From a virus (lineage: Duplodnaviria; Heunggongvirae; Uroviricota; Caudoviricetes): a stretch of 64,000 nt of DNA. Both the position numbers and the translations under genes were made by a program. A model generated the notes under the pieces. The model had not been told where the DNA came from and did not search any database. It was given only the letters and a program-made list of their open reading frames with translations. Positions 17,046-61,077 of the stretch are shown here, in pieces; position 1 is the first letter of the stretch; each line of letters starts with the position of its first letter. The DNA lies in the IMG/VR virus record IMGVR_UViG_3300009008_000004, positions 18,004-82,003 of that record. The stretch is one strand, 5' to 3'.

Positions 17046-17570
17046 ATGCCAAAAGAATACACGGCGCTCCTCCAGATACCGGAGCCTTTACACACATGCC
17101 CCAATTGTGGGGCCCACCCCTTCGAGAGCTTCATGCGCGGATCAGTCCAACGCGCAAAGAGGAGTTGGTTTACCCCCTGGAAGGAGAGACCTTACTGCTC
17201 GATTATCTGCGATATGTGCAAGGAAATAGTGGGGCATGAGTACCCCTTTCTGGGGGAGATAGAGCTAGAAAAGCCCTACCGATATAACAGGGATGTCATC
17301 GCTCCTAAGTACACCTGCGAGGGAGCGCAGCAGAACGTGCTGGCCAGCCTGCAGCAAATAGAGGAGCAGGTAGATGCGCTCGCGGAGTTTATTATGCCCA
17401 AAGAACCCAAAGTAACCGAGTTCCCGGAAAGTGAGGAGCTCGAACAATTTCTGCGAGGAGAAGAAGAGCCTCCCCCGCCGAAACCACCCAAGAAGAAGTC
17501 GAACGTGAAGAGAAGGACCCGTAAGTCCCGCCGGTGGGAACAGATCCTCAAGAAACCACAAGAGGACTAA
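17046..17570 (+). CDS. Zn-ribbon protein with Lys/Arg-rich C-terminus
   Basis: CPNCGAHP...CDMCKE; C-terminal PPPKPPKKKSNVKRRTRKSRR. Confidence 0.5.
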   Translation: MPKEYTALLQIPEPLHTCPNCGAHPFESFMRGSVQRAKRSWFTPWKERPYCSIICDMCKEIVGHEYPFLGEIELEKPYRYNRDVIAPKYTCEGAQQNVLASLQQIEEQVDALAEFIMPKEPKVTEFPESEELEQFLRGEEEPPPPKPPKKKSNVKRRTRKSRRWEQILKKPQED

Positions 17571-17585
17571 TCGCATCCGATACCG

Positions 17586-17593
17586 GGTATAAG
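17586..17593 (+). promoter_or_regulatory. GGTATAAG box
   Basis: 32 nt upstream of ATG 17618. Confidence 0.4.
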
Positions 17594-17617
17594 ACCTCCG
17601 TACGAAGGGAGTTACAT

Positions 17618-31079: not shown

Positions 31080-32942
31080 ATGCTCGCAATTCTTGTTTTG
31101 ATCACCATCGTAGTACTGTGCAGCATTGTCGTACTGTGGAAGTTCCGCTTCACCAAGAAGGAGTACACCGGGGAGACCACCATGGGTGGTTACGAGAAGT
31201 ACAAGACGGTGAAGCACCATCTGCCGCGCAAACTGCAGATCCTCGGAACTGCGCTTGCTATCATCCTATGGGCAGCAACATTTCTCGGAACGACTCTGTA
31301 CGTCGCACCGAAGACGGGGTACCTCGAGTACTCAAAGACATGGGGTGGTGGCTCCATGGGACCGGGGCAGATCGTTGCCTACGACGGAGAGAACGGCCCG
31401 CAAGCAGAAATTCTGCCGCCCGGACCCCACATCCTACCCCCGTGGCAATTCGAGGTCATCGAACGCTCCGACTTCGTAGTCCCTCCGGGCCAGATCGCAG
31501 AGCTGTCGACCAAGGACGGCGAACCACTATCCCCGGGTATGCGCTATGCACCTGAGTGGCAAGAGCTATCTGCCTTCCTCGATGCAGTAAACTTCCTCTC
31601 CTCTGGGAAAGGCTACAAAGGCGACCAAGTCACAATCCTCAAACCTGGTAACTGGAAGTTCAACCAGAACCTGTATGTCGCCGAACTCGCGAATGTTACC
31701 AACGTCCAGGTTGGGCACGTAGCAGTCGTCAAGGCAAACTACGGAGATGTCCCCACGCCGAAGACGATCAAGACCGCGAATATCATGGAAGTCGAGGTCC
31801 CGCTAACCAAGGAAGAGTTGGACATGGCCTACAAGGAGGCCATCGAGCTGGAGACCCAGCGGCAATTGGCTACAGGCATCCCCGCGGACCAGGTCAATGT
31901 AAAGCGGGAAGACGTAAAGGTCAAGAAGTCCAAAGTCATGCTCAAGGAAGTGGAGCAAGAAGTGGACGATCCCCTGGTAGACGTCGGCGAGCGTGGGATC
32001 TGGAGGAAGCCGCTGATCCCCGGAGAGTACTTCATGCACACGAAGGCGCATGAATTCAAGGATATTTTGACCATGAAGGTTCGCGTTGCCTACAGTCCTG
32101 AGGACAAGAAAGAACAGGACAACGTAGCGTTGGACCCAATCATCGTAAGGTCGAAAGATGGCTTTGAGTTCCCCGTCGACGTGCGCGTGGTCTACCATAT
32201 CGAACCCTCCGATGCACCTTGGGTGGTGGCAACCATCGGCGATGACGACTACGTGCTGGACAAAGTCATGACTCCTGCGGTTCGGTCAATCTTCCGAAAC
32301 CTCATGGGACGCTCGAAAGCACTCGACTTCGTAGCCGACCGCGAACTCAAGCAGCGGGAAGCAAAGTCACTGATTGCGAAAAAGTGCGCAGTGCACGGCG
32401 TCACTGTCGATGAAGTGCTGATCGGCCGGGTTGGTGATGATGCTACGCTGGGGGCGCTGATGAAAACGCAGAAGGACCGCGAGATTGCAGTCCAGCAGCA
32501 AGTGACCCTTGGGGTGCAGCAGAAGGCCGCTGAGCAGCAGAAAGAGCTCAGTAAGACCCAACAGGAGGCCGAGGAGGAAAAGTCCCTGGCAAAAGCCGCC
32601 TACGAGGTCCAGAGGGCACAACAGCGCAAGCTCCAGGCCCAAGAAGACGCGGATGCGGAGGCAATCAAGGTGAAGGTCGCAGCAGAGGCTGAAGCTGAGA
32701 AGATCCGAACGATCGCTCGCGCAGAAGCGGATGGCTACACAATGAAGGTCACCGCACTTGGGCGAGACACAGTCCGGACTATCGAGGCCCTGCGCATCGT
32801 TGGGGACGCCAATCTACGGATCACGCCAAACGTCATGGTATCTGGTGGAACCGAGGGAGTCGTCAGCGCACTCGCAGGAACACTCCTCAACAACTTCAAT
32901 GTCGCTGGGAAGGGCACAGGAATGCCCATACCCACCGAGTAG
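31080..32942 (+). CDS. SPFH/band-7 (flotillin-like) membrane protein
   Basis: N-terminal TM helices, SPFH-like core (FEFPVDVRVVYHIEP), long Ala/Glu/Gln-rich flotillin-type coiled coil. Confidence 0.65.
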   Translation: MLAILVLITIVVLCSIVVLWKFRFTKKEYTGETTMGGYEKYKTVKHHLPRKLQILGTALAIILWAATFLGTTLYVAPKTGYLEYSKTWGGGSMGPGQIVAYDGENGPQAEILPPGPHILPPWQFEVIERSDFVVPPGQIAELSTKDGEPLSPGMRYAPEWQELSAFLDAVNFLSSGKGYKGDQVTILKPGNWKFNQNLYVAELANVTNVQVGHVAVVKANYGDVPTPKTIKTANIMEVEVPLTKEELDMAYKEAIELETQRQLATGIPADQVNVKREDVKVKKSKVMLKEVEQEVDDPLVDVGERGIWRKPLIPGEYFMHTKAHEFKDILTMKVRVAYSPEDKKEQDNVALDPIIVRSKDGFEFPVDVRVVYHIEPSDAPWVVATIGDDDYVLDKVMTPAVRSIFRNLMGRSKALDFVADRELKQREAKSLIAKKCAVHGVTVDEVLIGRVGDDATLGALMKTQKDREIAVQQQVTLGVQQKAAEQQKELSKTQQEAEEEKSLAKAAYEVQRAQQRKLQAQEDADAEAIKVKVAAEAEAEKIRTIARAEADGYTMKVTALGRDTVRTIEALRIVGDANLRITPNVMVSGGTEGVVSALAGTLLNNFNVAGKGTGMPIPTE

Positions 32943-33315: not shown

Positions 33316-33969
33316 ATGCTACACGTTATATTACAACTACTGCTTGCTGTTGGACCAGCCGAAAAAAGCCAGGTGGAGGACCATGTCGTCCGCCAGGTGA
33401 TCGAGACCAACTTCGACTTTGACGAGACTATAGTCGAAGACATCTTCTATGTCGCAGAGAGGGCTGAGGCGGATCCGATGATCTTAGCCTCAGTAGTAAA
33501 CCGGGAAAGCAACGGCCACCGGCAAGCTACACGTTACTGCGCTAAATGGAAGAGGAAGGAGGACGGGAAGCGAACGTGTGTAAAAGAGAAGTCGTGCTAC
33601 ACAAAGTGCGCAACCCGTACGTTCAAAGATGCCAACGGCATCATCCAAAGTGTGTGGAAGAATCGCTTAGATGTAGGGCTCTGGCAACTACGAGACGCAC
33701 CATCCTGGTCGTGGGTAAGGTGGTACCGCAAAAACCATGACCCGAGCATCCCCAAGAAATGCGCGGTCCAGCGAGAGTGCAGCCGAGAGGCCATGGTGCA
33801 TATCGTGAAGTACCTGAAGAAGCGGGCAAGCTATAAGAATTCCCGCAGCTGCCGCAAACCCCTGCACATACCAGAGTACCAATGGATCGCCTACTGGAAC
33901 TGGTGCGGCTCCTACAACAACCACGTCAAAACAGCTATCCGGCTGTGGAAAGAAGCGCTCGCGATGTAA
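33316..33969 (+). CDS. SLT-like lytic transglycosylase (tentative)
   Basis: signal-like N-terminus, VVNRESNGHRQA (catalytic E-S) and DVGLWQL resembling SLT GLMQ motif; RBS GGAGG. Confidence 0.45.
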   Translation: MLHVILQLLLAVGPAEKSQVEDHVVRQVIETNFDFDETIVEDIFYVAERAEADPMILASVVNRESNGHRQATRYCAKWKRKEDGKRTCVKEKSCYTKCATRTFKDANGIIQSVWKNRLDVGLWQLRDAPSWSWVRWYRKNHDPSIPKKCAVQRECSREAMVHIVKYLKKRASYKNSRSCRKPLHIPEYQWIAYWNWCGSYNNHVKTAIRLWKEALAM

Positions 33970-34054
33970 ATCCCCTGCAGTATCGGGAATAAGAGAAGTC
34001 CAATAGGCCCACTAACGGGCAAAGTTCTGTAAACACAGAGAGGTGAAGTACGTC

Positions 34055-34279
34055 ATGACAGACAAGAAGACTATCAAGGTTACCGTGGCGAAGCTGGGTG
34101 CTGACGATGTGATCGTCGAGGTCCCGGATGGATCGGAAGTTTGCAAGGTAGCGGGGCAGTCCGGCCTCGATACCCGTGGTTGCGTGTTCCAGCTCGACGG
34201 CGAGACTGTCGAAGGGACCGAATTGGTTGGTGAGGGCCAGATCCTCCAACTCGTCCCCCGCGTCGAGGGAGGGGAATAA
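34055..34279 (+). CDS. ubiquitin-like beta-grasp protein (ThiS/MoaD-like) with C-terminal GG-E
   Basis: 74 aa, KVTVAKLG...VEVPDGSEV...GQILQLVPRVEGGE: size, alternation and penultimate Gly-Gly typical of Ubl precursors. Confidence 0.6.
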   Translation: MTDKKTIKVTVAKLGADDVIVEVPDGSEVCKVAGQSGLDTRGCVFQLDGETVEGTELVGEGQILQLVPRVEGGE

Positions 34280-34303
34280 GAACGTGCGGGTGGGCTGCTC
34301 AAA

Positions 34304-34320
34304 ATATCTCGATTAGATAA
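34304..34320. promoter_or_regulatory. quasi-palindromic operator-like site ATATCTCGATTAGATAA
   Basis: reverse complement of the 11234-11250 site; just upstream of E2-like gene RBS. Confidence 0.45.
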
Positions 34321-34351
34321 TTGGGCAGCCTGCCCAACAAGGAGGAACCAG

Positions 34352-35818
34352 GTGGCATACCAGTACAAAACCAACTACAAAGAGCTGGATGAAGCTCTCA
34401 CGACAGAGGCGGAAGTACTTGGGGCGTATATCATCCCCAGATTCGTTGACGTAAACGGGGCAGCCGACGTACACCACAAGCAAGCAGGGATCCCAAAAGC
34501 ACCTGCGGTATTCCTTGCTATCCAGCAGTATGACGTAGGAAATCCCATCTCAGAGGCGCGATTGCGTGTGCGGGGCGAAGACCTCACACTCACGAAGCCC
34601 ATACGCCCAACAAAGACGCCGGGGGTACCGATCGTTGTTAACAACGGCAAAAAACATGGTACCATAACCATCGGCTCGGTCTACGAGAACACGGTCTACC
34701 TCAACTTCAACCTGCCGAACTTTATCAACGCCAAGCGCTACACCAGAACTGCGCGGGGGAAAACGGGCAACACCGATGGCAGCTTCTTACCCAAACTATT
34801 CGCCCAGCACCTCCGTCCAGCATTCCAACTCGCGGCCAAGTTCGACGAAGGCTACAGCTACGCCGACGAAAAGAGAGTCCACGTCCAGAATGTGCTAAAG
34901 ACTCAAAAGACGGTCAAGAAAGAGCTTGAGCGCAAAATCTCCGTCCAAAGGAGGTCTATCGCCAACCACATCCAGGCAATCGAACAAGCAACCTCTAGGC
35001 TGGGAGAGATGCAACAGACGCTTGCCGGCCTCGAGGCCGACCAGGTGAAGCTTGCGAAAAAGGGGGAGACTCGCTTCCGCATCTTCAACAGCTTGTGGGG
35101 TAATGGCATTCACGATCTACGGATCGAGCCCACGCACATCATATTCCTCACAGCCCCGATCTTCTCCGAAGGGCTACCTTTCGGGCGCTTCTGGGTAACT
35201 ATCCCGCGGGGCGCAGACCGTCAGTACTCCAATATCACGATCAAGGCAGAAAACAACACCTACAACATAGGCGGATACGTACACCCACACATCCACGAGA
35301 ATGGGAGTATTTGCTGGGGCACAGCCGGCACGGTTATTGCGCAATTCCGCGGGCGGGGACAAGAGATCGAATGTATCCCCATTATCCTGGAGTACCTCCG
35401 GACCTACCATCATGACCACCAGTACCGCGCCATTGAGTACTGGGACGAGAAATTCGGTAAAAAGGGGGATAAAAAGCGAACTGACCGTGGTTCTCGCTGG
35501 CGTGAGTGTTACAGTAAGGTTACAGATCCGTACGAGTGTGCAGGATGCTTTGCCCCGGAATGCCCTTACCGGGACGGTGCCGAAGATCGTTGCTACAGGC
35601 AGCGGAACAAGAAGCAGGAGTACATTCGGTGTATGCAGTGTAAGGCCTGCAATAACTGGAAACACGCCAAAGCTGCCTGCCGGAAAAACCATCAGCAGGA
35701 CAGGAAGGATTGCGTGGGCTGCCCAGTAACATCATGTACCTACGCCGAGCCTGAGAAAGTGGCAAAAGCCCGCAAACCCAGACGGAAAACGGCTAAAGGG
35801 AGGACTAAGGCCGCATGA
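34352..35818 (+). CDS. E2 (UBC)-like ubiquitin-conjugating domain protein with N-terminal extension and Cys-rich C-terminus
   Basis: GTG start 7 nt after AAGGAGG; GGYVHPHIHENGSICWGTAG matches E2 HPN-x-x-x-x-G-x-I-C active-site signature; C-terminal 100 aa has 14 Cys (Zn-binding-like). Confidence 0.6.
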   Translation: MAYQYKTNYKELDEALTTEAEVLGAYIIPRFVDVNGAADVHHKQAGIPKAPAVFLAIQQYDVGNPISEARLRVRGEDLTLTKPIRPTKTPGVPIVVNNGKKHGTITIGSVYENTVYLNFNLPNFINAKRYTRTARGKTGNTDGSFLPKLFAQHLRPAFQLAAKFDEGYSYADEKRVHVQNVLKTQKTVKKELERKISVQRRSIANHIQAIEQATSRLGEMQQTLAGLEADQVKLAKKGETRFRIFNSLWGNGIHDLRIEPTHIIFLTAPIFSEGLPFGRFWVTIPRGADRQYSNITIKAENNTYNIGGYVHPHIHENGSICWGTAGTVIAQFRGRGQEIECIPIILEYLRTYHHDHQYRAIEYWDEKFGKKGDKKRTDRGSRWRECYSKVTDPYECAGCFAPECPYRDGAEDRCYRQRNKKQEYIRCMQCKACNNWKHAKAACRKNHQQDRKDCVGCPVTSCTYAEPEKVAKARKPRRKTAKGRTKAA

Positions 35819-36753
35819 AAATCAAAGTAGAACCAACAATTTTCCTTCTGCCAGAAGTCATCACGAAGATCGACATCTGGTGTAAGAAGGCCAAAGGGGA
35901 GGTCTCTGGCCTCGGCCTCATCGACATCGATGAAGATGGGGACATCTTTGTAACTGATGTCTACCTACTTGAGCAAAAGTCATCCAGTGGTAATACGGAC
36001 CTCGACCAGGAGGCTGTTGGTAACCTGATGACCGAACTCAGAAAGGAAGGCATCTCAATGTCCAAGCTCCGCTTCTGGTGGCATTCACATGGGAATGGTG
36101 GAGTATTTTGGTCGGGAACCGATGACAAGACCATCGATATTCTCGGCAAAGGCGGCTTTATGGTCTCCATGGTCACCAACAAGAAGCGGGAGAAGAAGTT
36201 CCGGATCGGGATGCAGAAACCGCTGAAACTGGACCTGGATGACGTTGGGTGGAGCCTCGCCTACTTCCCAGACGAAGAGTTTGAGAAGGAGTGCGAAAAG
36301 GAATTCGATGAGAAGGTCAAGGAGGTCACGACGATCACTACCTTCAAGGGTTCCGGAAACTACGGGCACAACCGCTCCGGCCGGGGCCGCTTCTACCATA
36401 ATGGGCGGTGGCACGACTCCTGGCCCGGTGGCAATGGGGGTTCCCGGACCGATTCTCCAGGAGGTGGGCTTCATCAGCCCGTCCCTTTTCAGGGAGAGGA
36501 CACAAGCCCCGGGACAAACAACCCACTCGAAATGCTCCCGTCGTGGGGAGAAATCCCCGGGACCGACGCAAGAAGTAGAGTCAGCGATCTCGTTGGTCAA
36601 GAGATTGAAGAGGTCGATACTCTCTGGCTTATTCTCAACGAAGCGGACTACACGGTAGCCGGGCTTGACCAACTCCGTAAGGCTAACAAGATCGAAACTG
36701 CGGAGCACAACCAAGCACGCGCCCAACTGAAGGAGCTCGGACTCGATGACTGA
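35815..36753 (+). CDS. JAB/MPN (JAMM) metallopeptidase
   Basis: E...WWHSHGNGGVFWSGTD = HxHx7Sx2D JAMM motif; ATGA coupling to E2-like gene. Confidence 0.8.
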   Translation: MKIKVEPTIFLLPEVITKIDIWCKKAKGEVSGLGLIDIDEDGDIFVTDVYLLEQKSSSGNTDLDQEAVGNLMTELRKEGISMSKLRFWWHSHGNGGVFWSGTDDKTIDILGKGGFMVSMVTNKKREKKFRIGMQKPLKLDLDDVGWSLAYFPDEEFEKECEKEFDEKVKEVTTITTFKGSGNYGHNRSGRGRFYHNGRWHDSWPGGNGGSRTDSPGGGLHQPVPFQGEDTSPGTNNPLEMLPSWGEIPGTDARSRVSDLVGQEIEEVDTLWLILNEADYTVAGLDQLRKANKIETAEHNQARAQLKELGLDD

Positions 36754-37411
36754 TATCGACAGGAATGCTATGTATCATCGGCAGCTCGATATCCTCGATC
36801 CGGAGAAGGCTGCCAAACTCAACGTCACTATTATCGGGGCCGGCGCTATCGGCTCCTTCACCGCACTCTCCCTGGCAAAGATCGGCGTAACCAACATCAC
36901 GGTCTACGACGATGACACGGTAGAGCTGCACAACATCCCGAACCAGTGGTACAGACTATCGGATGTCGGGAAGAAGAAGGTCATTGCCCTCCGCGAGATT
37001 ATCGAGCAGTTTACCGGGGTCAAGATTACCGCGATCCCGGAAAAGTTCGATAAGCAGAAGGCAAAAGGATTCGTCATCAGCGGAGTCGACTCCATGGATG
37101 CTCGCATTGGCATCTGGCAGAACCTCAAGATGCAGTTTCCACAGAGGTATCTGGATGCCCGCATGGGAGCGGAGGTGGGGGAGATACACATGGTGAACCC
37201 GGCCGACTTCGACAACGCCGAACAGTACGAGGAGAAGCACCTATTTCCCTCAACTGAGGCTGCTCCAGGAGCATGTACTGCCCGCAGCACAATGTACTGC
37301 GCCAGCGGGCTCGCTGCGATCATTGCGGCAAAGGTCAGCAACTTCATCAACCAGAGGCCCGACTCGGACCTGATCGTGGACTTCCGAAATATGAAGGTGT
37401 TGCCTGTTTGA
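36746..37411 (+). CDS. E1-like ThiF/MoeB-family adenylyltransferase
   Basis: VTIIGAGAIGS nucleotide-binding loop, YDDDTVELHNIPNQ E1 signature, 8-nt overlap with JAB gene. Confidence 0.8.
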   Translation: MTDIDRNAMYHRQLDILDPEKAAKLNVTIIGAGAIGSFTALSLAKIGVTNITVYDDDTVELHNIPNQWYRLSDVGKKKVIALREIIEQFTGVKITAIPEKFDKQKAKGFVISGVDSMDARIGIWQNLKMQFPQRYLDARMGAEVGEIHMVNPADFDNAEQYEEKHLFPSTEAAPGACTARSTMYCASGLAAIIAAKVSNFINQRPDSDLIVDFRNMKVLPV

Positions 37412-38954: not shown

Positions 38955-40295
38955 ATGAAACCGACCCGTCTTTGGTCGACATGGAGTGTCTCGAAATTGG
39001 TGCGGGTCCTGGACTGCCCACGATCCTTTGACCTTGTCTACATCAGACAGACGAAGGGTCCCGAAAGCCCGTACAAGGTTTTCGGCTCGGCGGTCCACAC
39101 CATGCTCGAGAGATTCTTCAAAGTGAACTACCAAACAGCTGAGTCCTTCGCCAAGGCGGGCGTCGGTTTCTGGATGGGGGTCGTAGACGGAAGTCACGGC
39201 CCCTCTTCTTTTAGTGCCGAGGTAAGCAAACCAGTCATTATTGACTTCAGTAACGTGAAGGCACCAATGATGTTCCTGGGCATGATGAAGAAGATACTGC
39301 GGATCTTCTACAACGATAATTTGGAGTATAGAGATGGTCCAAAACCTACGCCAGAGGTGGAAAAAAATTTCACGCTTGATCTGGAAGGCAAAAAGATTCG
39401 AGGTATCCTGGATCGACTCCAGCCCGACCATCCGGATCTTGCCTGGAACCGGCGAGACGGGGAGCTCGGCACACGGGTGGGCCACCATATCATCGACTAC
39501 AAGCCATACGTACTCGACCAGTTCGGGCTCCACCTTGACCTGCAACTCACCATGTACAATCTGTGGTACATCCAGCAGTACGGCAGAGACCCCCTCTCAC
39601 TTGGAATCTACAATTACAAAGAGCCCATCGACAGAGTTGTATGCACACCTCCCCGCACCCAGAAGGATTTCGCCGACCTCGCCCTCAAGTTTCAGGAGGC
39701 CTCAGAGTATGTCATTGGCGTGCTCACCGGCGACATGTCGAGGCCCTCCGCAATAACCGGGTTCCGGCATTTCATCCAAGATGACCTGATGACCGGGGTA
39801 ATGACGCCCAAGAAGGTAATGGGTGGTCCCGGGTGTAAGTTCTGTGAGTTCAAGGAGAATTGCCTGAAGATTCACAAAGGGGAGCTACCGACCACGCGGG
39901 AATACGTCAAGAAGAAGTACGAACTTCCAAGCTCCCCACTCCTCCCCTTCGCGGTAAAACATAAGGGAGCGGACCGACCGCGTACCCGCGCGAATCTGCG
40001 GAGAGTGCTTGCCCGCAGAAGGGTAGAGCCTCTGCCCACCAAACCGGAGGAGGTCTATCTCCGCCTACAACTGAAGGTGGATAGGACATCCGACAAAACC
40101 GACCCAACCAAGTATGGGCGCTGCCCCCACTGCGGGTTCGCCCTCCAGAAGAACGGGAAGTGTAACAACTGCCTCTCCTGGTATAGCAAGGATGGCAACT
40201 TCCTCCCCGAGAAATCATGGAAGTCCGTCTCCGACAGGATCAAAAGGAGGAAAGAAAAGGATGAGCAGGATGTGGGACCAGGTAATAGCGGATGA
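38955..40295 (+). CDS. PD-(D/E)xK nuclease, Cas4/RecB-like with Fe-S cysteines and C-terminal Zn ribbon
   Basis: N-terminal Cys (LDCPRSF), ...DRLQPD...IIDYKPY (D-x-K), GGPGCKFCEFKENC three-Cys cluster: Cas4-family arrangement; C-terminal CPHCG...CNNC. Confidence 0.6.
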   Translation: MKPTRLWSTWSVSKLVRVLDCPRSFDLVYIRQTKGPESPYKVFGSAVHTMLERFFKVNYQTAESFAKAGVGFWMGVVDGSHGPSSFSAEVSKPVIIDFSNVKAPMMFLGMMKKILRIFYNDNLEYRDGPKPTPEVEKNFTLDLEGKKIRGILDRLQPDHPDLAWNRRDGELGTRVGHHIIDYKPYVLDQFGLHLDLQLTMYNLWYIQQYGRDPLSLGIYNYKEPIDRVVCTPPRTQKDFADLALKFQEASEYVIGVLTGDMSRPSAITGFRHFIQDDLMTGVMTPKKVMGGPGCKFCEFKENCLKIHKGELPTTREYVKKKYELPSSPLLPFAVKHKGADRPRTRANLRRVLARRRVEPLPTKPEEVYLRLQLKVDRTSDKTDPTKYGRCPHCGFALQKNGKCNNCLSWYSKDGNFLPEKSWKSVSDRIKRRKEKDEQDVGPGNSG

Positions 40296-40926
40296 GTATA
40301 ACCTCCGCCAACAAGTAGCAGACCACACGAACAACACCCTTAACTCCGTCTGTAAGGAATGCGATTCCCCCGTCTGCTGTATGCAGATGTTTGAGGTTAC
40401 CCCGTGGGATGCGCTCCTTATCATCAGGACACATCCGCAAGCGGTAACTCGGCTTATACCCAAGCTGGAAGAGCAGGCTGAACTGGAGAAGAAGTACGCC
40501 GGCGAGATGGAGGAGTACATCCATAACGAACGGCATCCCTGCGCCTTTCTCACTGCCGACGGCAAATGCGAAATATACGCCATGCGCCCCATCATTTGCG
40601 CTATGATGCATATTCGCGAAGGAGAGAAGCGCTGCGGAGACATGGACGCCAAAGAGAAGCATGCAGTTGGGCTCCTCCCGGAGCTCACTGTACGATACCT
40701 CTCCACAACACACAAAGTGTGGGAAGGTGTAGACGGACAACAGGGAATGCGGCACTTCCTACTGGAGAACGGGATGGAGGATATACCTTTTGGATTTATC
40801 CCGGGCCTTGCCACAGCCATACTCGCTGTCGGCGAAGGCAAGAAACCTCCTATGTTCTCCGAGCGGGACATGCTCATGACCGAACTTCGTATGCGGCAAA
40901 AGGGGTACATGAAAGACGCCCCATGA
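40261..40926 (+). CDS. YkgJ-family Zn/Fe-chelating domain protein (second copy)
   Basis: CKECDSPVCC...CAFLTADGKCEIYAMRPIIC. Confidence 0.55.
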   Translation: MSRMWDQVIADEYNLRQQVADHTNNTLNSVCKECDSPVCCMQMFEVTPWDALLIIRTHPQAVTRLIPKLEEQAELEKKYAGEMEEYIHNERHPCAFLTADGKCEIYAMRPIICAMMHIREGEKRCGDMDAKEKHAVGLLPELTVRYLSTTHKVWEGVDGQQGMRHFLLENGMEDIPFGFIPGLATAILAVGEGKKPPMFSERDMLMTELRMRQKGYMKDAP

Positions 40927-42796: not shown

Positions 42797-43090
42797 ATGC
42801 AACAGTTGCTTCCTCAAATCCGGCAGTTTGCCGCAGACAGGACAAGGGAGGCTGCGAGCGCTCTAAATGCTCTTGGCCGTGTCGTCAAAGTTCTCCAGGT
42901 GCTCGACTCCGAATACCAGGAGACGTACCAAACCCTTACGGTACGAGTCGATTCCGGGAAGTACGAGGGGCAAGTCCTGCCCGTCGTACAGATCCAGCTG
43001 GATGGTAAAGGGGTTACCATTTGGGCTACCCACAACGAAAACCCCAAGAAATTTCGCGTCACAGGCGAATTGGAGGTCACACAAGCATGA
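42797..43090 (+). CDS. hypothetical protein
   Basis: ATG 8 nt after GGAGG; 97 aa. Confidence 0.5.
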   Translation: MQQLLPQIRQFAADRTREAASALNALGRVVKVLQVLDSEYQETYQTLTVRVDSGKYEGQVLPVVQIQLDGKGVTIWATHNENPKKFRVTGELEVTQA

Positions 43091-44016
43091 GCAAGAAAAC
43101 CGTACACCTGGTCCTGGAGGATATCCGGTTGGATTCCGATGGTATGTCCAATTGCCGATCGGCTATGGAGGGTATCGAGGAGCTGGCACAGGACATCGTA
43201 GATGAGGGATGCCTGCTCAACCCCATTGGGGTATGGCAGCCCCCGGGAAAGGACTACTACGTCTTGAACTATGGCTACCGTAGGCTCCATGCGCTGAAGT
43301 GGCTCAAAGAACACCGACCCAAAGATTTCATCTCCCTTGACTTTGAGGAGGCTGGGAAGATCCCATGTGCCGCATACGGTGGGGATTTGAACGCCGCATT
43401 GATCAGGAACCTCTCTGAGAACCTGAAGCGGAAGCGGGTAAACCCGGCAGATCTGGTTACCCGGGTCGGGTACCTGCACGAAGTCCGGGGGATGACGGAG
43501 ACACTAATCGCGAAGACCATTGGGATTGCCCAGTCCCAAGTCTCAGGTATGCTGGGAGTCCACCTTGGGTGCTCCAAGGCAGTTATTGGTGCCCTCCGGC
43601 AGAAGCTCATCAACCTGTCCAACGCCAAGAAGTTCAGCAAGCTCCCACACGAGCAGCAGGATGAATTGCTGGAGAAGCTGCTTGAGCAGGACCCTGAGCA
43701 GGCAAAGAAGATCAAGAAGCTTTTGGCCAAGAAGACCGAGGCCTCCGTGCGTCCGGGTGTAAAGACTCTGAAGTCTACTCTTGGGCAGGTAGCTGCACGT
43801 AAGGAAGAGCGGGACAAGGAGTACCGCGATGGAGTCATTGCCGGCCTCAAGTTTGCATTGGGTATCATTGATAAGGTCGAATGGCTGTTTGCTCCGGCAC
43901 ACGCAGTTCCGGAAGATGCAGCTCCTCAGGCCCCGACGAGACTCGTTCGTGCGATGAAACCGAAGAAGAAGTTCGCTGGGAAAGCGCAAGAAAAGGAGAC
44001 CACCAAACCAAAGTGA
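43087..44016 (+). CDS. ParB/Sulfiredoxin-fold (ParB N-terminal domain) protein
   Basis: NPIGVWQ...YYVLNYGYRRLHALKWL = ParB GxxRxxA box; HTH-like middle; Lys-rich C-terminus; ATGA overlap. Confidence 0.6.
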   Translation: MSKKTVHLVLEDIRLDSDGMSNCRSAMEGIEELAQDIVDEGCLLNPIGVWQPPGKDYYVLNYGYRRLHALKWLKEHRPKDFISLDFEEAGKIPCAAYGGDLNAALIRNLSENLKRKRVNPADLVTRVGYLHEVRGMTETLIAKTIGIAQSQVSGMLGVHLGCSKAVIGALRQKLINLSNAKKFSKLPHEQQDELLEKLLEQDPEQAKKIKKLLAKKTEASVRPGVKTLKSTLGQVAARKEERDKEYRDGVIAGLKFALGIIDKVEWLFAPAHAVPEDAAPQAPTRLVRAMKPKKKFAGKAQEKETTKPK

Positions 44017-44031
44017 GGTGTTGATTAGACA

Positions 44032-45639
44032 ATGTCCAAGCTAGAAACCCTGATCCGGGCTGCGTACCCGGTGATCTACGTTGAGACCCCCGAAGAGGAG
44101 CGGTTGTTCCATGAACTTTCACGGATCACCACCGAAACGGGGCTGGATTTATTCACTTGGGATATTTCCGCTGGCTTCCGCCAGTATAAGGACGACGAGT
44201 TCAAGGACATCGATCCTGAAGCGGTAGAGCCACGCGAGGCTATCCCGCAGTATTTCATCAACAAAGATGACGTGAATGGGATTCTGGTACTCCCCGACAT
44301 CCACCGCCTGTTCCATGATGCCGCCTGCCTACGCTTGCTGCGCAACGCGCTCCAGCTGCGGCACCAGGGTGGCATCAAGATCATCTTGATGTGCTCCCCT
44401 ATCATTGACCTTCCCCTGGAGCTCCGCCGGCAGGTAGCTACTGTCGACTTCCCCCTCCCCTCCCGGGAGGAAATCAAGGAATTCCTCGAGGAGCAGCGCA
44501 ACGACGTCCCCAAGACCCTCTTCCCTGTGAAGAAGGAGATGGCGGAGGTGGTTGATAGCTGCCGTGGGCTGACGATGATGGAGATTGAGAATGTTCTGGC
44601 CAACTGCCTGGTCGAGGATTCTCCTCTGAAACCCAGCCGGGTTATCGGGGAGAAGAAAGAGATTCTCCGTGGGGCCAAGTCCCTGGAGTACATCGAATCT
44701 CCCTTGGAACTGAACAAGGATGTCGGGGGTCTCGAGAACGTGATTGCCTGGCTCGAGCTTCGCAAGCGTGCCTTCTCTGAGGATGCTGTGAAGTTCGGGA
44801 TTCCTGCGCCCAAAGGCTTGCTCCTGGTGGGTTTGCCTGGAACAGGGAAAAGCTTGGTCGCCAAAGCAGTTGGTGGTTCTTGGAAGTTCCCTCTGATCCG
44901 CTTCAATATGGGCGCTGCCTTCTCGAAGTGGCAGGGGGAATCCGAGGCGGAGATCCGGAATGCCTGGAACACCGCAGAGGCCTGCGCACCATGCCTCTTG
45001 GTAGTGGATGAAATTGATAAAGCGACCGGCGGTCTGGGCGGCGACTCAGACAATGGGACCGGGAACCGAATTCTTGGAGACCTGCTGACGAAGATGCAGG
45101 AGAACACCAAGGGCGTGGTCGTTATTGCTACCTGTAATGACGTACAGGCGATGCACCCAGCATTGCTTCGTAAAGGCCGCTTTGACGAGATTATCTTCGT
45201 GGACTTGCCCGGCCCCAAGGCCATCGAGCAGATCCTCGATATCCACTTGACGGCAAAGAAGCAGCCAACGTTGGATTCGTTCACCAAGAAAGAACGGAAA
45301 AGCATCGTCGAGCACATGCAGGGCATGACCGGCGCGGAGATTGAGCAGGCAGTTGTAGATGCCATGTACCTGGCATTTGCTGCTGAGCGGGCCCTCCTTC
45401 CTGAGGACCTCGTAGCTGCCGCTACTAACACCCGACCGTATTGCGTCCTGAAAGAGGAGGAAGTCAAATGGATGCGGAAGTGGGCAGAAAACAGGGCGGT
45501 GCCAGCATCCGCCGAAGTCTTGGACTTGACGAAAGCCCTGGACTTTCGCAAGCGCTTGGGCCAAGAACTCCCAGCGGATTCACCAATGTCTACGGTAAAG
45601 AAGCTGCGGCTAAAACGTCCCTCGCGCTCTGGCTCGTAG
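44032..45639 (+). CDS. AAA+ ATPase (classical AAA clade) with N-terminal domain
   Basis: LLLVGLPGTGKSLVAKAV Walker A, CLLVVDEIDKA Walker B, ATCNDVQAMHPALLRKGRFDEII sensor/Arg-finger region. Confidence 0.8.
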   Translation: MSKLETLIRAAYPVIYVETPEEERLFHELSRITTETGLDLFTWDISAGFRQYKDDEFKDIDPEAVEPREAIPQYFINKDDVNGILVLPDIHRLFHDAACLRLLRNALQLRHQGGIKIILMCSPIIDLPLELRRQVATVDFPLPSREEIKEFLEEQRNDVPKTLFPVKKEMAEVVDSCRGLTMMEIENVLANCLVEDSPLKPSRVIGEKKEILRGAKSLEYIESPLELNKDVGGLENVIAWLELRKRAFSEDAVKFGIPAPKGLLLVGLPGTGKSLVAKAVGGSWKFPLIRFNMGAAFSKWQGESEAEIRNAWNTAEACAPCLLVVDEIDKATGGLGGDSDNGTGNRILGDLLTKMQENTKGVVVIATCNDVQAMHPALLRKGRFDEIIFVDLPGPKAIEQILDIHLTAKKQPTLDSFTKKERKSIVEHMQGMTGAEIEQAVVDAMYLAFAAERALLPEDLVAAATNTRPYCVLKEEEVKWMRKWAENRAVPASAEVLDLTKALDFRKRLGQELPADSPMSTVKKLRLKRPSRSGS

Positions 45640-50320: not shown

Positions 50321-53300
50321 CTACACTACCAGCGTCACGTTGATCTGGTTGGCCGGGTAGTACGGCGTCACCGAGATATCCACATACAGCGTATCCGGCT
50401 GCTGTGAGTCGATGTAGATGTTGGTGATCGTGATCTTCGATACGATTGTCCCAGTCATCCCACCGATTACAGAGCTAACCAAAATGCTCACGTAGTCAAG
50501 GAAATTCCTTGTCAGATTGAACTTCCCAGCCAACCCCTGCATAGAGACCCGGAGCCGCTTCGTGATGTAGTCCAGCACATGGGTGATGGACGCTTCCCTG
50601 GTTTGCAGGGAGGTGACATCGGTAGTCAGCTGATGCCGAGTTTCAACTGCGGAGTAGCTGTCCTGCTGGATCAACCACCAAACACCGCCGCCGGCCGCGG
50701 TATCCATGTCGGAAGCTGACAGGAGATCCCAGGAGCCAGAGACACTCTCAATACCCGCAAGAGTAAGTCCGGTAAAGGACTGCTGCGGGGCAGTCGAAGC
50801 GCACAACCCAGCAAGGGCTGCACAAGTGTACATCCCATGGATAGAGGTCGAGGACCCACTTTCCAGGTAGGTAGCAGACGAGGGCTGCACGTACCGAACA
50901 CGGCGGTATCCGTACGCCGTCGCCTTTGAAGCAAGAGCAGCTGCGAGCTGCGCACGCCCCGTCGAGGTTGTGGTATCGATGGAGGCCTGCCTGACATAGA
51001 GAGTAACTGTCTCGCCATCAGCATCCCAAGCCGGGCTGTCTCCACCGGCCTCAACCATAGTAGTTGCGTAGAAGTTATCATCGTTACCGGTGGTCCCCGG
51101 GCCGGAGCCTGCGGAGAAACCGGTGATGCGGCACTTCAACACGTTGCCGGCCTTAATCTCAGACACGGAGTACTTGAACGGATCGTCCGTACGAGTGATG
51201 TAAAGGCCGTTTTCAATGGTAACTGCTCCCGAAATAGGGACAGTCGCACCATTTGCGTCGGTCTTGCCAGCCAGCACAGCAGCAATATTGAAACCGGTGG
51301 CCGCATCGATTGTGACCTCAAAAGAGGTACCAGCAATCTTGTTGAACGGAGCCGTGGTATTCGGTGCCGAGCCACAAGTAGTCGGGGTGCGCTCTGTAGG
51401 TGAATCTTCACAAACGAAGCACACACGCTCGCTCTTTCCGGTAGTCGGGTCTGCCATCGCAGTTACGTGGGCATCAAGCAGCTCATGGACTGCAGGGCTA
51501 TCCGACATCGGAGCAATGGCGTAAACATCGGCAGACTGCAGGAAGTCGAAGGCCTTGGCGTAGGCGCTCGTGGTTCCATAAGCCATCAAAGTCGAGGTTT
51601 CTTCGACACCAAATGCCTTCACCTGGATATTCGGTGCGTTCAGCATCGCAAGGTACACACCGAGGGCCAGCGGGTTCGAAGAATTGACGGGACCAATTGC
51701 AGTCTCCATCTCAGCGTAGGTCGAGTAAATCTGCACAGCCGGGCTTGCACCCGCGGCAGTTATGTCGGTACGCAGGGCAGTGTATCCAGCAGCCAGCTGC
51801 GCAGTGCTGCTCTGGTACTCAACACCACCACCATCTCGGTTAAGCCCGCCCTTCAGGTAGATCAGTTGGTTGGTAGTATCAAACCAGACCTCAGACCGCG
51901 GCTTATCAGAAGTAGTGTTACCCTGGTACTGCCCATCGGTAGCCGCACCAGTAATACCTTGAGAGGAGATGTACCAGGTGCCAAGAGCAGTACCTACTGT
52001 GGCGTTTTGCTCTGTCAGGTCGAGGTATGCGTTGGTCAGTGTCTGAGCGCCAACTATGCCGTCGTTCCAGGTATAGTTAGCGAAGGCAGAGATTGTTCCA
52101 ACGTAACTTCCGGCGTTATACAACTTATCACCGACCTGCACGCGCAGGGGGTCCCCGCGGAAGATCTTACCGGTGAAGTCTGTTGTAGACGTGGTGTACG
52201 GCCCACGGAACAGCATGTTCGCGGCATCTCCACCGAACTCAATTCCCGCATCGTAACCGGCGTAGTTACCGCACATGGTTGCGTCCAAGGTACACTTCAA
52301 AACTTTTTGGCCCGTAGTGAGCAAACGGTAGTCTACCGTATAGGGCCCAGCACCAAGAGAAGCAGCCAAGGTAATCGTCCCAGTCGCTGGGTTGATCCCA
52401 GATACCGTTGAGATAGTTCCCCCCAACGTACCGGATCCTCGGGGAACTGTGTCCCCGGTAATCTGCGCAAGAATAGTCGCCCCACCAACCCGAGCAGCCT
52501 CAACATACGTTAGAGCCGCGACATCGGCCGAAGCGTCTACGAGGGAAGTTGTAGTTAGCGTAGCTGATGTACTGCCATACATCTCTGTAGCATATGGAAT
52601 ATCGGCAGCAGCTTCGGCTGTGAACGGGGAACCGCCGGTCACCAACGCATTAAGGGCTGCAAGCAATCCCGCCTCATTCGTCATGTCAGCCGCATCAAGC
52701 GTATCCGACGTAACCGGTCCCCCATTCACCCTAACAGTAATTGTCTTATTGATCAGGGGTGAGGACGCGCCGTAGAATGACGCCGCGGTGAGCGGGCATT
52801 CCCCAAGTACCGTGGGGTAGGTTTGAGTTGCGCTTGTCGCGGCGTAGTTATATGGATCCGCCCCAAAGTTTAGGCCGTAGATCTTGCCGCTCAAGTCATC
52901 AGAAAGTAAAGCAGATGTAGAACCGTCCAAGTAGCTAATGTTAGTGCTCCCGACAGTCGTGTTAGGTCCAAGAAACGGCTCAATGGTCGCATTCGCCTTC
53001 ATGGCAGTATCAAGGGCGGCCGCCTTGCAGATGTCGGGAACAGCTACTGTCCAAGCCGCGCCACCTGCCCCGCAAACCGCTGGGCAGTATTCAATTTCAA
53101 TTTCTACCGGGAAGGCCGCCCCAGCTACGGGATTCTTTACATTCGGGAGAATATAAGACCCGGGCGATACCGTAAATCCTACGTCAGCCGCGACGCTCGA
53201 GATAATCGTAACGGCCCCACCGGTAAGGGTAGTCAGAGTAAAGACGGGACCAGCGCCTGTAAGGATATACCAACCATTATAGGCTTCGCCCGGGCCCGAC

Positions 53301-61064: not shown

Positions 61065-61077
61065 TGTTCTCCTCCTA

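Follow-up and report, generated by a model that had tools for sequence, protein, structure and literature searches.

Four co-oriented plus-strand genes at positions 34055-37411 of the 64,000-nucleotide stretch of DNA analysed here (the window), encoding in this order a ubiquitin-like modifier (Ubl), an E2-like protein, a JAMM/JAB metallopeptidase (JAB) and an E1, are interpreted as a self-contained, virus-encoded Ubl conjugation module that modifies host or phage proteins for the benefit of the phage. A probability of roughly 70% is assigned to this reading, for which there are no biochemical data. The four folds, the intact catalytic residues, the GG terminus with its variable tail, the gene coupling and the strict co-occurrence of the genes are documented at the level of sequence comparison, and the biochemistry they imply (processing, adenylation, thioester formation and conjugation of the modifier) is well supported by inference. 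Confidence in the favoured role, in which the infecting phage itself profits from modified host or phage proteins, is only moderate and derives from the fixed syntenic position of the cassette in a phage lineage and its occurrence almost only in viruses.

The ORF list and direct translation agree on the gene layout. The E2 and JAB genes overlap in an ATGA at 35815-35818 and the JAB and E1 genes in the 8-nt ATGACTGA at 36746-36753, exactly as described in an earlier note on this DNA, whose account of four consecutive plus-strand genes, the last three of them coupled, is likewise borne out. No plus-strand terminator-like site was found within the cassette in a terminator scan, and the cassette probably forms a single transcription unit, located in the early/middle region of an uncultured tailed phage. 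Its location inside a phage genome, also claimed previously, is confirmed by matches of the window to major head, sheath, endolysin and exonuclease proteins and by relatives in IMG/VR. A downstream recombination-type neighbour proved to be a PD-(D/E)XK nuclease (Pfam/PHROG); the upstream 217-aa protein that had been called an SLT-like lysin is without Pfam or PHROG support. The host appears to be bacterial, since Shine-Dalgarno sites are present and the endolysin carries a peptidoglycan-binding domain.

The first gene (34055-34279, plus strand) encodes a 74-aa pro-Ubl, a ThiS/SAMP2-type beta-grasp modifier ending in LVPRVEGGE. An alternative in-frame GTG at 34043 would yield a 78-aa product; the ATG at 34055 is favoured because of the homologues and a GAGG Shine-Dalgarno site. 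Gly72-Gly73 (34268-34273) is invariant, with a single variable residue (E74) between it and the stop codon; in five close homologues (64-72% identical) LVPRVEGG is invariant and the last residue varies (E/C/R/K/D). Across the 30-odd loci nearly every Ubl keeps the GG, with 0-3 variable residues or a second Ubl repeat after it, and this arrangement is the signature of a processed, conjugatable Ubl, as described for Caldiarchaeum pro-ubiquitin and BilA in the papers on each. The window Ubl alone has no Pfam match, and its AF2 model is poor (pLDDT 53); a fold search with that model carried no meaning. The family profile, on the other hand, matches SAMP2 (5lda_B, 4.8e-10), PF1061 (2.5e-9) and lambda protein I (5e-4), and positional orthologues at the related loci L010, L012 and L011 score above the Pfam ThiS gathering score, the window Ubl matching that of L012 at 2e-10 (BLASTP). 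The SAMP2 profile match and the orthologues passing Pfam ThiS sustain the earlier description of a 74-aa beta-grasp Ubl with Gly-Gly one residue before its end.

The second gene (34352-35818, plus strand; GTG start, preceded by AAGGAGGA) encodes a 488-aa E2-like protein of four parts, all on the same strand: an N-terminal beta-rich domain (aa 1-165; 34352-34846), a long alpha-helix or coiled coil (aa about 170-248; 34859-35095) whose end merges into helix alpha-1 of the core, a UBC-fold catalytic core (aa about 235-372; 35054-35467) and a Cys-rich C-terminal tail (aa 386-462; 35507-35737). The core contains HPH at residues 311-313, the predicted catalytic Cys321 and an FLxSYNxxxPY helix, the motif HPHIHENGSICWG occupying aa 311-323 (35282-35320). 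When a 48-sequence core alignment was compared with six canonical E2s, hhalign gave a probability of 95.1% (E 3e-8, 100 columns), with HPH opposite HPN and the phage Cys opposite E2 Cys85. E2s make up all of the top 50 Foldseek PDB matches of the model (best E 0.037, probability 0.97), 21 of 21 PDB matches of an 8-sequence profile and 17 of 22 of a 48-sequence profile. Single HMMER matches of the E2 profile to solved E2s are each non-significant (E 0.05-2), and the assignment rests instead on hhalign, the uniformity of the matches and the motif. The HPN-type catalytic signature noticed earlier holds in the form of an HPH-x7-Cys UBC core. The AF2 model has a mean pLDDT of 59, the N-terminal domain and helix being best modelled (about 70-88) and the core being of low confidence (40-67).

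For the E2-like protein, a word-seeded search of 5.8 billion proteins gave just 4 clusters, with 39-42% identity; the family as a whole comprises at least 1,172 clusters and has no coverage in Pfam, NCBIfam, PHROGs or PADLOC. H311, P312, H313, C321 and G323 do not vary in the 8-sequence alignment, and with 104 sequences P312, H313, C321 and G323 remain invariant, H311 being at least 90% conserved; 143 of 146 top family representatives carry both the Cys and the HPH motif. The N-terminal domain, which has no Pfam or PHROG match, is proposed, by inference only, to be a target-recognition module; among relatives, 73 to 573 aa precede the core. The tail consists of three C-x9-12-C-x2-C-x2-4-C units, the 12 Cys of which are invariant in the clade, and is found in part of the relatives (8-17 Cys) and missing in others. 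The family yields nothing beyond faint matches, one to zf-RING_4 (0.0013) and two to CLIP1 zinc knuckles. The tail is probably a metal-binding region (Zn or Fe-S) and may constitute a built-in E3-like or interaction module, both functions being inferred.

The 312-aa product of the third gene (35815-36753, plus strand) is a JAMM/MPN+ metallopeptidase with a catalytic domain at aa about 1-170, followed by a Gly-rich linker and a conserved C-terminal helix. Its motif HSHGNGGVFWSGTD (aa 90-103; 36082-36123) belongs to an intact E...HxH-x7-S-x2-D set, the upstream catalytic Glu being E29 in GEVSG, and E29, H90, H92, S100 and D103 are invariant among 38 homologues. The closest solved relatives are Rpn11 proteins, the family profile scoring about 2e-9 both against 6fjv, an Rpn11-like protein of Caldiarchaeum, and against Rpn11/PSMD14, with a weaker match to CSN5; the Rpn11 match and the invariant catalytic residues uphold the earlier identification of a JAMM/JAB peptidase.

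The fourth gene (36746-37411, plus strand) encodes a minimal, 221-aa E1 with a single ThiF/MoeB-type adenylation domain containing GAGAIG and DDDTVELHNIPN. The glycine motif G31xG33xxG36 lies at 36836-36853; D55, D57, R70, K78 and D115 are invariant in the family, as is Cys177-Thr178 (37274-37279). Cys177 is a candidate thioester Cys and is presumably equivalent to ThiF C184, MoeB C187 and UBA5 C250, although no alignment supports the equivalence. The assignment as an E1/ThiF adenylyltransferase, made from the letters alone in the earlier note, is secured by Pfam ThiF (4.5e-21, above cut-off), and a match to phrog_15670 was also obtained (4e-24). The family profile detects the active adenylation domain of UBA6/UBA1 (1e-14), UBA5 (6e-13) and ThiF (4e-12). 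PADLOC E1-E2 models match the phage E1 in their E1 part only (Cap2 'E1-E2', up to 3e-14), and the NCBIfam matches all fall far under curated cut-offs (UbaA, 34 bits against a cut-off of 450). In the Pfam check suggested earlier, ThiF is found, Prok-JAB stays under its cut-off for the window JAB (0.0077), and ThiS is passed by the orthologues of the Ubl and not by the window Ubl itself.

In the mechanism proposed for this module, all chemical steps, the independence from an E3 and the targets are inferred. The JAMM peptidase would trim the pro-Ubl directly after Gly73 and, in relatives, would split tandem di-Ubl precursors. Using ATP, the E1, probably a homodimer because it has a single ThiF-type domain, would then adenylate Gly73 and probably form a thioester on Cys177, from which the Ubl could be handed to Cys321 of the E2. 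Transfer to target lysines (or N-termini) by the E2 is envisaged without a separate E3, target recognition being provided by the variable N-terminal domain, the coiled coil and, in this clade, the putatively metal-binding, Cys-rich tail; the JAMM enzyme might also reverse the modification. The mechanism claim is limited by the absence of any available E3, target or expression data for the cassette.

At least two dozen unrelated viral contigs carry the cassette, and its four genes co-occur at every related locus examined. Together with the profile matches of the E1, JAB and Ubl and the hhalign result for the E2, this co-occurrence lies far beyond chance. In 22 IMG/VR contigs recovered via the JAMM motif, the E1 gene is adjacent in all 22, an E2-core ORF is detected in 21 to 22 depending on the profile, and the Ubl is found in 21. 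Most of these loci have nothing but the cassette genes in common with the window, and the cassette is a self-contained module that moves between unrelated viral backbones. It is syntenic in sister lineages, and within the lineage of the window its position has stayed the same despite divergence of the E2 to about 40% identity. Among 185,579 species genomes it was found a single time, the carrier being a 34-kb MAG contig, and in 50,697 GenBank phages it was not found; the genome scan relied on a narrow exact motif, so that the cellular count gives only a minimum. To judge by this distribution, the cassette is apparently the viruses' own form of a system hitherto described from cells. The cultured phage FpV4 and uncultured bajarodcaudo virus 1 have a JAB-ThiF pair in the replication module, with no E2 or Ubl detectable. 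At locus L012 the cassette adjoins a BrxL gene.

The same biochemistry could serve anti-phage defence carried by the phage, a Bil-like superinfection exclusion in which structural proteins of competitors are tagged. Gene content and order identical to BilABCD, the modular travel among unrelated backbones, the BrxL gene beside the L012 relative and a variable E2 N-terminal region, which fits diversifying target recognition, are compatible with such a role, and the Bil Ubl is reported to be conjugated to a phage tail protein, the central tail fiber. This role is nonetheless considered unlikely: PADLOC has no defence model that matches the Ubl, E2 or JAB, cellular genomes, the usual home of defence systems, have almost no copies of the cassette, in the window lineage it is fixed in a conserved replication/recombination block rather than a variable hotspot, and the contigs resemble large lytic-type tailed phages (an integrase search was not included). 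Counter-defence, which the earlier note had proposed, would have the phage inactivate host immune or proteolytic factors by Ubl conjugation, or strip host tags with the JAMM enzyme, the Ubl, E1 and E2 serving as competitors or decoys. Host Ubl-based defences do exist (Bil and CBASS Cap2/Cap3), JAMM enzymes are multiplied in Borg elements, where the authors of that work propose them to be deSAMPylases directed against host tagging, and the cassette lies in an early/middle region. Tag stripping, however, needs a deconjugase alone, yet E1, E2 and Ubl are strictly kept with intact active sites; as the Ubl, JAB and E2 are moreover unrelated at family level to Bil/Cap components and no host is known, this alternative is regarded as improbable.

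Highly improbable is a ThiS/MoaD-type sulfur carrier, in which adenylation of the Ubl by the E1 would lead to a thiocarboxylate that delivers sulfur to a modified nucleotide or cofactor, the JAB merely exposing the GG. The Ubl is indeed of ThiS/SAMP2 rather than ubiquitin type, the E1 is minimal and resembles ThiF, sulfur operons of ThiS-JAB-E1 composition have been described (Iyer et al., 2006, Table 1, rows 4a-4e), and the JAB-ThiF pairs of FpV4 and uncultured bajarodcaudo virus 1 could be read in the same way. Essentially every cassette, however, encodes a UBC-fold protein with invariant HPH...Cys, tandem di-Ubl precursors are typical of conjugation systems, and no rhodanese, cysteine desulfurase or sulfur-acceptor enzyme was identified among the Pfam-scanned neighbours in the window lineage or in the Pfam tables of related contigs.

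Protein modification by a dedicated conjugation module, the preferred reading, invites comparison with known systems, and the cassette fails the membership tests for Bil, Bub/6E, Cap2/3 and PRTRC. The earlier note had equated its gene content with BilABCD/6E-type operons. Content and order (Ubl-E2-DUB-E1; Chambers et al.) do match BilABCD (Bacterial ISG15-like) type I (Iyer 6d) and type II (CEHH/6c), which also share a Ubl with a conserved C-terminal Gly and a possible short extension cut off by the JAB peptidase, and conjugation without an E3 (inferred for the phage cassette). Bil membership was rejected, however: in Bil the E1 is a pseudo-dimer of several domains (IAD+AAD+CYS domain), in contrast to one 221-aa ThiF domain, and the CEHH-type Bil E2s lack the classical HPN-position histidine (Iyer et al., 2006, Table 1), which the phage HPH-x7-C keeps as in canonical E2s. 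Bil Ubls are ubiquitin-like and often of two domains, whereas the phage Ubl is ThiS/SAMP2-like, and Bil is located in bacterial defence islands rather than viral genomes. PADLOC, Pfam and NCBIfam models of Bil/Bub/Cap-type systems do not match the cassette Ubl, E2 or JAB, a generic ThiF domain being the sole model in common with Bil. The '6E' label denotes the wrong type, namely the polyUbl/inactive-E2/JAB-E1-fusion type now called Bub (Iyer et al., 2006), and this assignment was rejected as well.

Bub (Iyer 6e) and type II CBASS Cap2/Cap3 (Iyer 6a/6b) likewise have E1-like, E2-like and peptidase components, and some cassette relatives resemble poly-Ubl Bub in having tandem di-Ubls. E1/E2-like enzymes of Bub pathways are able to use non-thioester chemistry, a caveat for the thioester steps inferred here; Bub has a peptidase-E1 fusion without catalytic Cys and oxyester intermediates, and Cap2 is an E2-E1 fusion conjugating a CD-NTase, whereas the phage cassette has separate proteins, an E2 with an invariant Cys and no CD-NTase. 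The Caldiarchaeum subterraneum/Asgard operon (Ub, E1-like, E2-like, srfp RING E3, Rpn11) shares an HPN-type E2, a compact arrangement, a pro-modifier with a post-GG extension cleaved by a JAMM enzyme (inferred for the phage) and, in 6fjv, the best solved relative of the phage JAB. Its modifier is of ubiquitin type and it has a separate small RING E3; the phage cassette has no RING gene (only the Cys-rich E2 tail), a shorter E1 and an apparently bacterial host.

The archaeal SAMP system (SAMP1/2/3, UbaA E1, JAMM1 desampylase) resembles the cassette in that its E1 is of minimal ThiF/MoeB type and its modifier is removed or processed by a JAMM protease, and Pyrococcus SAMP2 is the best match of the Ubl family profile. 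SAMPylation is not known to require an E2; the cassettes differ in encoding a UBC-fold E2 with a catalytic Cys. The sole Ubl-JAB pairing so far described in phages, lambda/T1 tail assembly proteins I (Ubl) and K (JAB+NlpC/P60), is part of a tail module, has no E1 or E2 and has its Ubl fused to another domain, whereas the cassette lies in an early/replication region and encodes a full activation and transfer cascade. UBE2W-type E2s, which are among the best PDB profile matches of the phage E2, have the HPH variant of HPN in common with it (HPHVYSNGHIC against HPHIHENGSICWG); the cores are only about 15-20% identical, large N- and C-terminal additions set the phage protein apart, and the shared His may be convergent.

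The four genes of the cassette follow one another on the + strand and encode a ubiquitin-like protein (Ubl) of 74 aa (34055-34279) ending in LVPRVEGGE, an E2-like protein of 488 aa (34352-35818) that starts with GTG just after AAGGAGGA and carries HPHIHENGSICWG at residues 311-323, a JAB/JAMM peptidase of 312 aa (35815-36753) with HSHGNGGVFWSGTD at residues 90-103, and an E1 of 221 aa (36746-37411) containing GAGAIG and DDDTVELHNIPN. This arrangement, claimed in an earlier note from the nucleotide sequence alone, was borne out by a six-frame ORF list and direct translation, and the overlaps reported there (ATGA at 35815-35818 and 8 nt at 36746-36753) are exact. No terminator-like sites were found on the + strand within the cassette, and its composition is uniform with that of the remainder of the window. 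Scans of single sequences with Pfam, PADLOC, PHROGs and NCBIfam returned nothing for the Ubl or the E2 and only a sub-threshold Prok-JAB match for the peptidase (16.5 versus 25 bits in Pfam), so that assignments had to be sought with family profiles. Of the HMMs suggested in the earlier note, ThiF matches the E1 and ThiS matches orthologues of the Ubl above the Pfam cut-offs, the window Ubl and E2 are unmatched, and the peptidase lies below threshold.

The E1 consists of one ThiF domain (residues 18-201; Pfam 4.5e-21, 75.5 bits versus a gathering score of 28.1) and, with its Rossmann GxGxxG motif and Arg/Asp/Lys ATP-Mg site, qualifies as an adenylyltransferase of the E1/ThiF/MoeB type. All seven aligned orthologues are single-domain proteins of 213-228 aa, in which the nucleotide-binding residues and Cys177-Thr178 are invariant, and a profile built from them matches the active adenylation domains of UBA6/UBA1 (1e-14), UBA5 (6e-13) and ThiF (4e-12), and also Cap2 and MoeB. 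Cys177 lies at a position that we take to be that of ThiF C184, MoeB C187 and UBA5 C250. This equivalence has no alignment support, a phmmer search with the C-terminal half of the E1, aimed at placing Cys177 relative to these proteins, having given no meaningful match; it remains an inference, as does a catalytic role for the residue. In NCBIfam (2026) the E1 scores well short of the cut-offs of all named subfamilies, ThiF, MoeB, UbaA, PRTRC_ThiF and Cap2_3 among them.

Assignment of the Ubl rests largely on its relatives. An AF2 model of the window protein built from five sequences (pLDDT 53, all-beta) was discarded when Foldseek returned immunoglobulin/TCR noise. The positionally equivalent small proteins of more distant cassettes exceed the Pfam ThiS gathering score and can be aligned with the window Ubl from end to end (BLASTP 2e-10), and a joint profile has Pyrococcus SAMP2 (4.8e-10), PF1061, MoaD and lambda tail protein I among its matches. 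The test for a ThiS/MoaD/SAMP-type modifier is thus met, the beta-grasp of ∼70 aa being deduced from the SAMP2 profile match and the ThiS-passing orthologues and the Gly-Gly end being seen directly. LVPRVEGG is invariant in five close homologues and the single residue that follows it varies (E, C, R, K or D), and over ∼30 loci the proteins end either in GG plus 0-3 variable residues or as a head-to-tail di-Ubl with a GG junction. As judged from these termini, the pattern is that of a modifier needing processing to expose Gly-Gly, a step demonstrated in experiments on Caldiarchaeum pro-ubiquitin (by Rpn11) and on BilA (by BilC). Di-Ubl precursors of 136-138 aa, reminiscent of polyubiquitin genes (for example ...KVKGG|QKLVKV...KVKGGK), are encoded at five related loci (L011 4289-4702, L014 4263-4676, L015 7669-8079, L017 7672-8082 and L031 4579-4995); they would imply obligatory processing by the JAMM peptidase. 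Two cysteines of the Ubl, C30 and C43 (EVCK...RGCV), are invariant within the window's clade but missing in more distant members of the Ubl family.

In the peptidase, the full JAMM motif E...HxH-x7-S-x2-D (E29, H90, H92, S100 and D103) is invariant in 38 homologues, and the family profile matches the Rpn11-like protein of Caldiarchaeum (6fjv) and eukaryotic Rpn11/PSMD14 at about 2e-9, with CSN5 weaker. On one contig of a sister lineage (JGI 3300072015, which carries P0004) two genes (100 and 185 aa) are called here with ∼250 nt between them, in place of a single ∼300-aa gene, which could reflect a frameshift, an insertion or a split gene.

The E2 is the least certain of the four assignments and was for this reason tested in several ways. 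A word-seeded search with it returned only four clusters. Its AF2 model has a low-confidence core, yet each of the 50 best Foldseek matches in the PDB is an E2 (best E 0.037, probability 0.97); the corresponding model of the Ubl was uninformative. A full-length profile found only spurious coiled-coil or Cys-rich matches in the PDB, and trimming to the core was needed. When the core (residues about 235-372) of eight cassettes was used, all 21 PDB matches were E2s, each non-significant singly, with alignments running from helix alpha-1 via HPN to the catalytic Cys; with a core profile of 48 sequences, 17 of the 22 matches were E2s (UbcH7 at E 0.05), again none significant by itself. Comparison by hhalign with six canonical E2 sequences entered by hand gave 95.1% probability and E 3e-8 over 100 columns, pairing HPH with HPN, the Cys with Cys85, and a conserved FLxSYNxxxPY with the E2 'LLxxPNPxDP' helix. 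Together the hhalign, Foldseek (on a low-confidence model) and PDB-profile results meet the test for a UBC fold (alpha1, four-stranded meander, HPN loop, catalytic Cys and crossover helix), and that for an HPN followed by Cys at 7-8 residues is met by an HPH variant and Cys321. The invariant HPH, a variant shared with UBE2W-type E2s/UbcA1, precedes the Cys by 8 residues. At the level of homology, we regard both the UBC fold and the predicted catalytic Cys321 as established.

The family to which the E2 core belongs comprises at least 1,172 clusters (defined at 50% identity) at E<=1e-3 in an exhaustive HMMER search of 1.84 billion representatives, and HPx...C.G is present in 143 of its 146 top representatives. 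Its Pfam coverage is essentially nil, with a weak UQ_con match (0.0024) in 1 of 104 members, and zf-RING_4 likewise gave one faint match among the 104; NCBIfam, PHROGs and PADLOC do not include the family either. Around the core of the window E2 are an N-terminal beta-rich domain, which is the best modelled part, a helix of ∼80 residues, and a Cys-rich tail in which three C-x9-12-C-x2-C-x2-4-C units hold twelve cysteines that are invariant in the clade. Among relatives, the part preceding the core ranges from 73 to 573 aa and the tail contains 0 to 17 Cys; on account of this variability, both are proposed to be built-in targeting modules. Some related contigs encode two to four E2-core paralogues (L023 4649-11052, L024 4651-12546, L030 3920-5263, L031 5060-8901 and L029 4050-11590), several of them without HPH...Cys, and these may be UEV-like inactive E2s.

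The gene content and order Ubl-E2-JAB-E1 equal those of the four-gene BilABCD operons (order from Chambers et al.), as the earlier note had claimed. The E1 of BilABCD, however, has an inactive and an active adenylation domain with an inserted CYS domain, in contrast to the one ThiF domain of the cassette, and the Bil E2 (BilB/CEHH type), as defined in Iyer Table 1 and by Chambers, lacks the classical HPN histidine and has a conserved His after the Cys, whereas HPH is invariant here. No PADLOC or Pfam Prok-E2 match to the cassette E2 was obtained. Bil systems furthermore reside in bacterial genomes and defence islands, unlike the cassette, which occurs in a phage and 22 IMG/VR contigs, with one match in the genomes of 185,579 species. 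Membership in BilABCD was rejected on these three points, the last of which concerns location only, without phenotype data. The '6E' label did not hold: in Iyer et al. (2006), 6e combines a polyUbl, an inactive E2/RWD and a JAB-E1 fusion, and is now termed Bub, which works through oxyesters. In the cassette, separate genes encode JAB and E1, the E2 has an invariant Cys, and the polyUbl trait appears only in some relatives.

The remaining systems fit no better. Type II CBASS Cap2/Cap3 (Iyer 6a/6b) has an E2-E1 fusion and a CD-NTase substrate gene, whereas the cassette has no such fusion, no CD-NTase was found among its neighbours, and the PADLOC E1-E2 models cover only the E1 portion. The PRTRC cassette (ParB-related, ThiF-related) also has models for its proteins A-E; here PRTRC_ThiF reaches 54.6 bits versus a cut-off of 144.75, and the Ubl, E2 and JAB are not matched by any PRTRC model. 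A ParB-HTH protein is encoded ∼6 kb downstream, and ThiF with ParB recalls the PRTRC theme. The Caldiarchaeum/Asgard operon, with its ubiquitin-type modifier and separate small RING E3, differs from the cassette, in which the modifier is of ThiS/SAMP type and no RING gene is present. Membership in the lambda I/K tail module was also rejected. By its parts the cassette is a mosaic, sharing a SAMP2/ThiS-like modifier and a minimal E1 with archaeal SAMPylation, and a canonical-type E2 and an Rpn11-like JAMM protein with the Caldiarchaeum/Asgard operon.

In contigs of sister lineages the cassette is syntenic; identity is about 40% for the E2, 50-58% for the JAB and 70-77% for the Ubl and E1. More distant cassettes were revealed by the gene contexts of JAB homologues. 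A JAMM-motif scan of IMG/VR identified 22 viral contigs of 10-190 kb, in all of which an E1 is adjacent (22/22), with an E2-core ORF in 21 or 22 depending on the profile and a Ubl in 21. Gene order is somewhat variable, and some of these contigs have extra E2 paralogues, a portion of which lack the Cys; the L029 contig carries two cassettes (two JAB-E1-Ubl sets). Outside the window's lineage the flanking genes are unrelated to those of the window, so that the four genes travel as a self-contained module. Cellular genomes of 185,579 species (one genome each), scanned with a narrow degenerate DNA motif, yielded one cassette only, carried by a 34-kb Minisyncoccales MAG contig; three of the four motif hits were unrelated to the cassette. 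Among GenBank phages, blastn and tblastn detected no relative of the cassette region, E2 or JAB. An unannotated JAB-E1 pair lies within a replication module (primase, UDG) in Flavobacterium phage FpV4 (KT876724.1; L008 3686-5618) and uncultured bajarodcaudo virus 1 (PQ006092.1; L009 3613-5669), where a ∼400-aa 'hypothetical protein' just upstream of an annotated ThiF/'E1 enzyme family protein' matches the JAMM family HMM (8.6e-10 and 2e-8, respectively). These JAB-like ORFs are distant ones, their context differs from that of the cassette, and no E2 core or Ubl was detected near either pair. On a 41.5-kb contig, a distant cassette (L012 7068-9810, -) adjoins genes for an SH3-repeat protein and BrxL (BREX Lon-like), which hints that some copies may lie in or near defence loci.

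The chemistry proposed for the cassette is derived from what is established about such folds and from the active sites being intact; every step is inferred, without biochemical data. The pro-Ubl would be trimmed by the JAMM enzyme, adenylated by the E1, held as a thioester on Cys177 and moved to Cys321 of the E2, which would modify targets without a separate E3, and the JAMM enzyme could reverse the modification. A pure sulfur-carrier pathway is unlikely, because an E2 with its active site is kept throughout. A role within the phage's own infection programme is favoured by the fixed syntenic position in a conserved replication/recombination block and by the near-exclusively viral distribution. 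The modular spread among unrelated viruses and the variable E2 appendages are equally consistent with a role in conflict, as superinfection exclusion or counter-defence.

Descriptions of complete Ubl-E1-E2-DUB cascades in prokaryotes have until now concerned cellular systems (Bil, Bub, Cap2/3 and the operons of Caldiarchaeum/Asgard), of which the bacterial ones are framed as anti-phage immunity. In phages, earlier notices are confined to the Ubl-JAB pair of tail assembly and to isolated genes for E1 or JAMM proteins, and related items include the lambda I/K tail pair, the expanded JAMM genes of Borg elements and three E1 homologues in the Asgard virus Nidhogg. Such a cascade goes unmentioned in a comparative survey of 224 jumbo phages, and no description of a complete phage-encoded Ubl-E1-E2-JAMM cascade was found in the literature searched, although coverage was incomplete and an earlier report cannot be excluded. 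The biochemical logic is already known; the novelty lies in how the components are combined, in an HPN-type E2 family that lacks annotation, and in ownership by viruses. The cassette represents the reverse arrangement, in which the whole cascade belongs to viruses, is conserved over deep divergence and passes between unrelated viral genomes as a module. Its four proteins make a compact system that could be reconstituted in vitro, and its HPN-type E2s, a large family without annotation, could serve to study E2 evolution. A VEGG remnant on lysine provides a concrete proteomic signature, and the cassette would allow the use of ubiquitin-like tagging by phages against hosts or competitors to be tested directly. 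The most far-reaching reading, to which we give a probability of roughly one in four, is that this is an old, virus-specific ubiquitination system of tailed phages whose E2 family is the closest lineage in the prokaryotic world to canonical HPN-type eukaryotic E2s, and which, in the course of infection, rewrites host or virion proteins without a separate E3. Were it true, ubiquitin-like tagging would be an offensive viral tool in bacteria and not only a cellular defence, and viruses would be a possible reservoir in early E2 evolution.

No close relatives of the window were found among 50,697 GenBank phage records; identical protein sequences also occur on JGI contigs of up to ∼182 kb. The window encodes a major head protein (59922-61145, -; phrog_2522), an endolysin-type peptidoglycan-binding domain and a PD-(D/E)XK exonuclease, and no tRNA genes were found in it. 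Strong Shine-Dalgarno sites and the peptidoglycan-binding domain point to a putative bacterial host, and on the same features an archaeal virus was rejected, a possibility raised by the SAMP2, Rpn11 and SSO2105_N matches. Directly upstream of the cassette, a 217-aa protein (33316-33969, +) previously read as an SLT-like lysin has no Pfam or PHROG match; in the sister lineages L001 and L004, the gene immediately preceding that of the Ubl encodes a counterpart of 57-58% identity. A 620-aa SPFH/Band 7 protein with an N-terminal hydrophobic segment (31080-32942, +) is encoded ∼1 kb upstream of the cassette, a position conserved in the sister lineage carrying P0004. Downstream is a conserved + strand block (38955-40295, 40270-40926 and 43021-44016) of a PD-(D/E)XK nuclease with a C-terminal Cys cluster, a CxxCxxCC (putative Zn/Fe-chelating) protein and the ParB-HTH protein. 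A 1,400-aa ORF (50321-54523, -) is unusually large for a sheath-like protein, only its last ∼200 residues matching tail sheath/TssC (phrog_279 1e-12; Pfam TssC 2e-5) and ∼1,200 aa of N-terminal sequence remaining without assignment. Two paralogous phage-type AAA ATPases are encoded at 17534-19381 and 44032-45639 (both +; phrog_30773 and phrog_8638, the latter at 1e-109). Their orthologues on sister contigs (L001 1-554 and 20085-21413; L004 15747-18100) are 865-887 aa in length and contain intein matches (Intein_splicing, HNH_3), indicating that inteins come and go in the lineage of the window.
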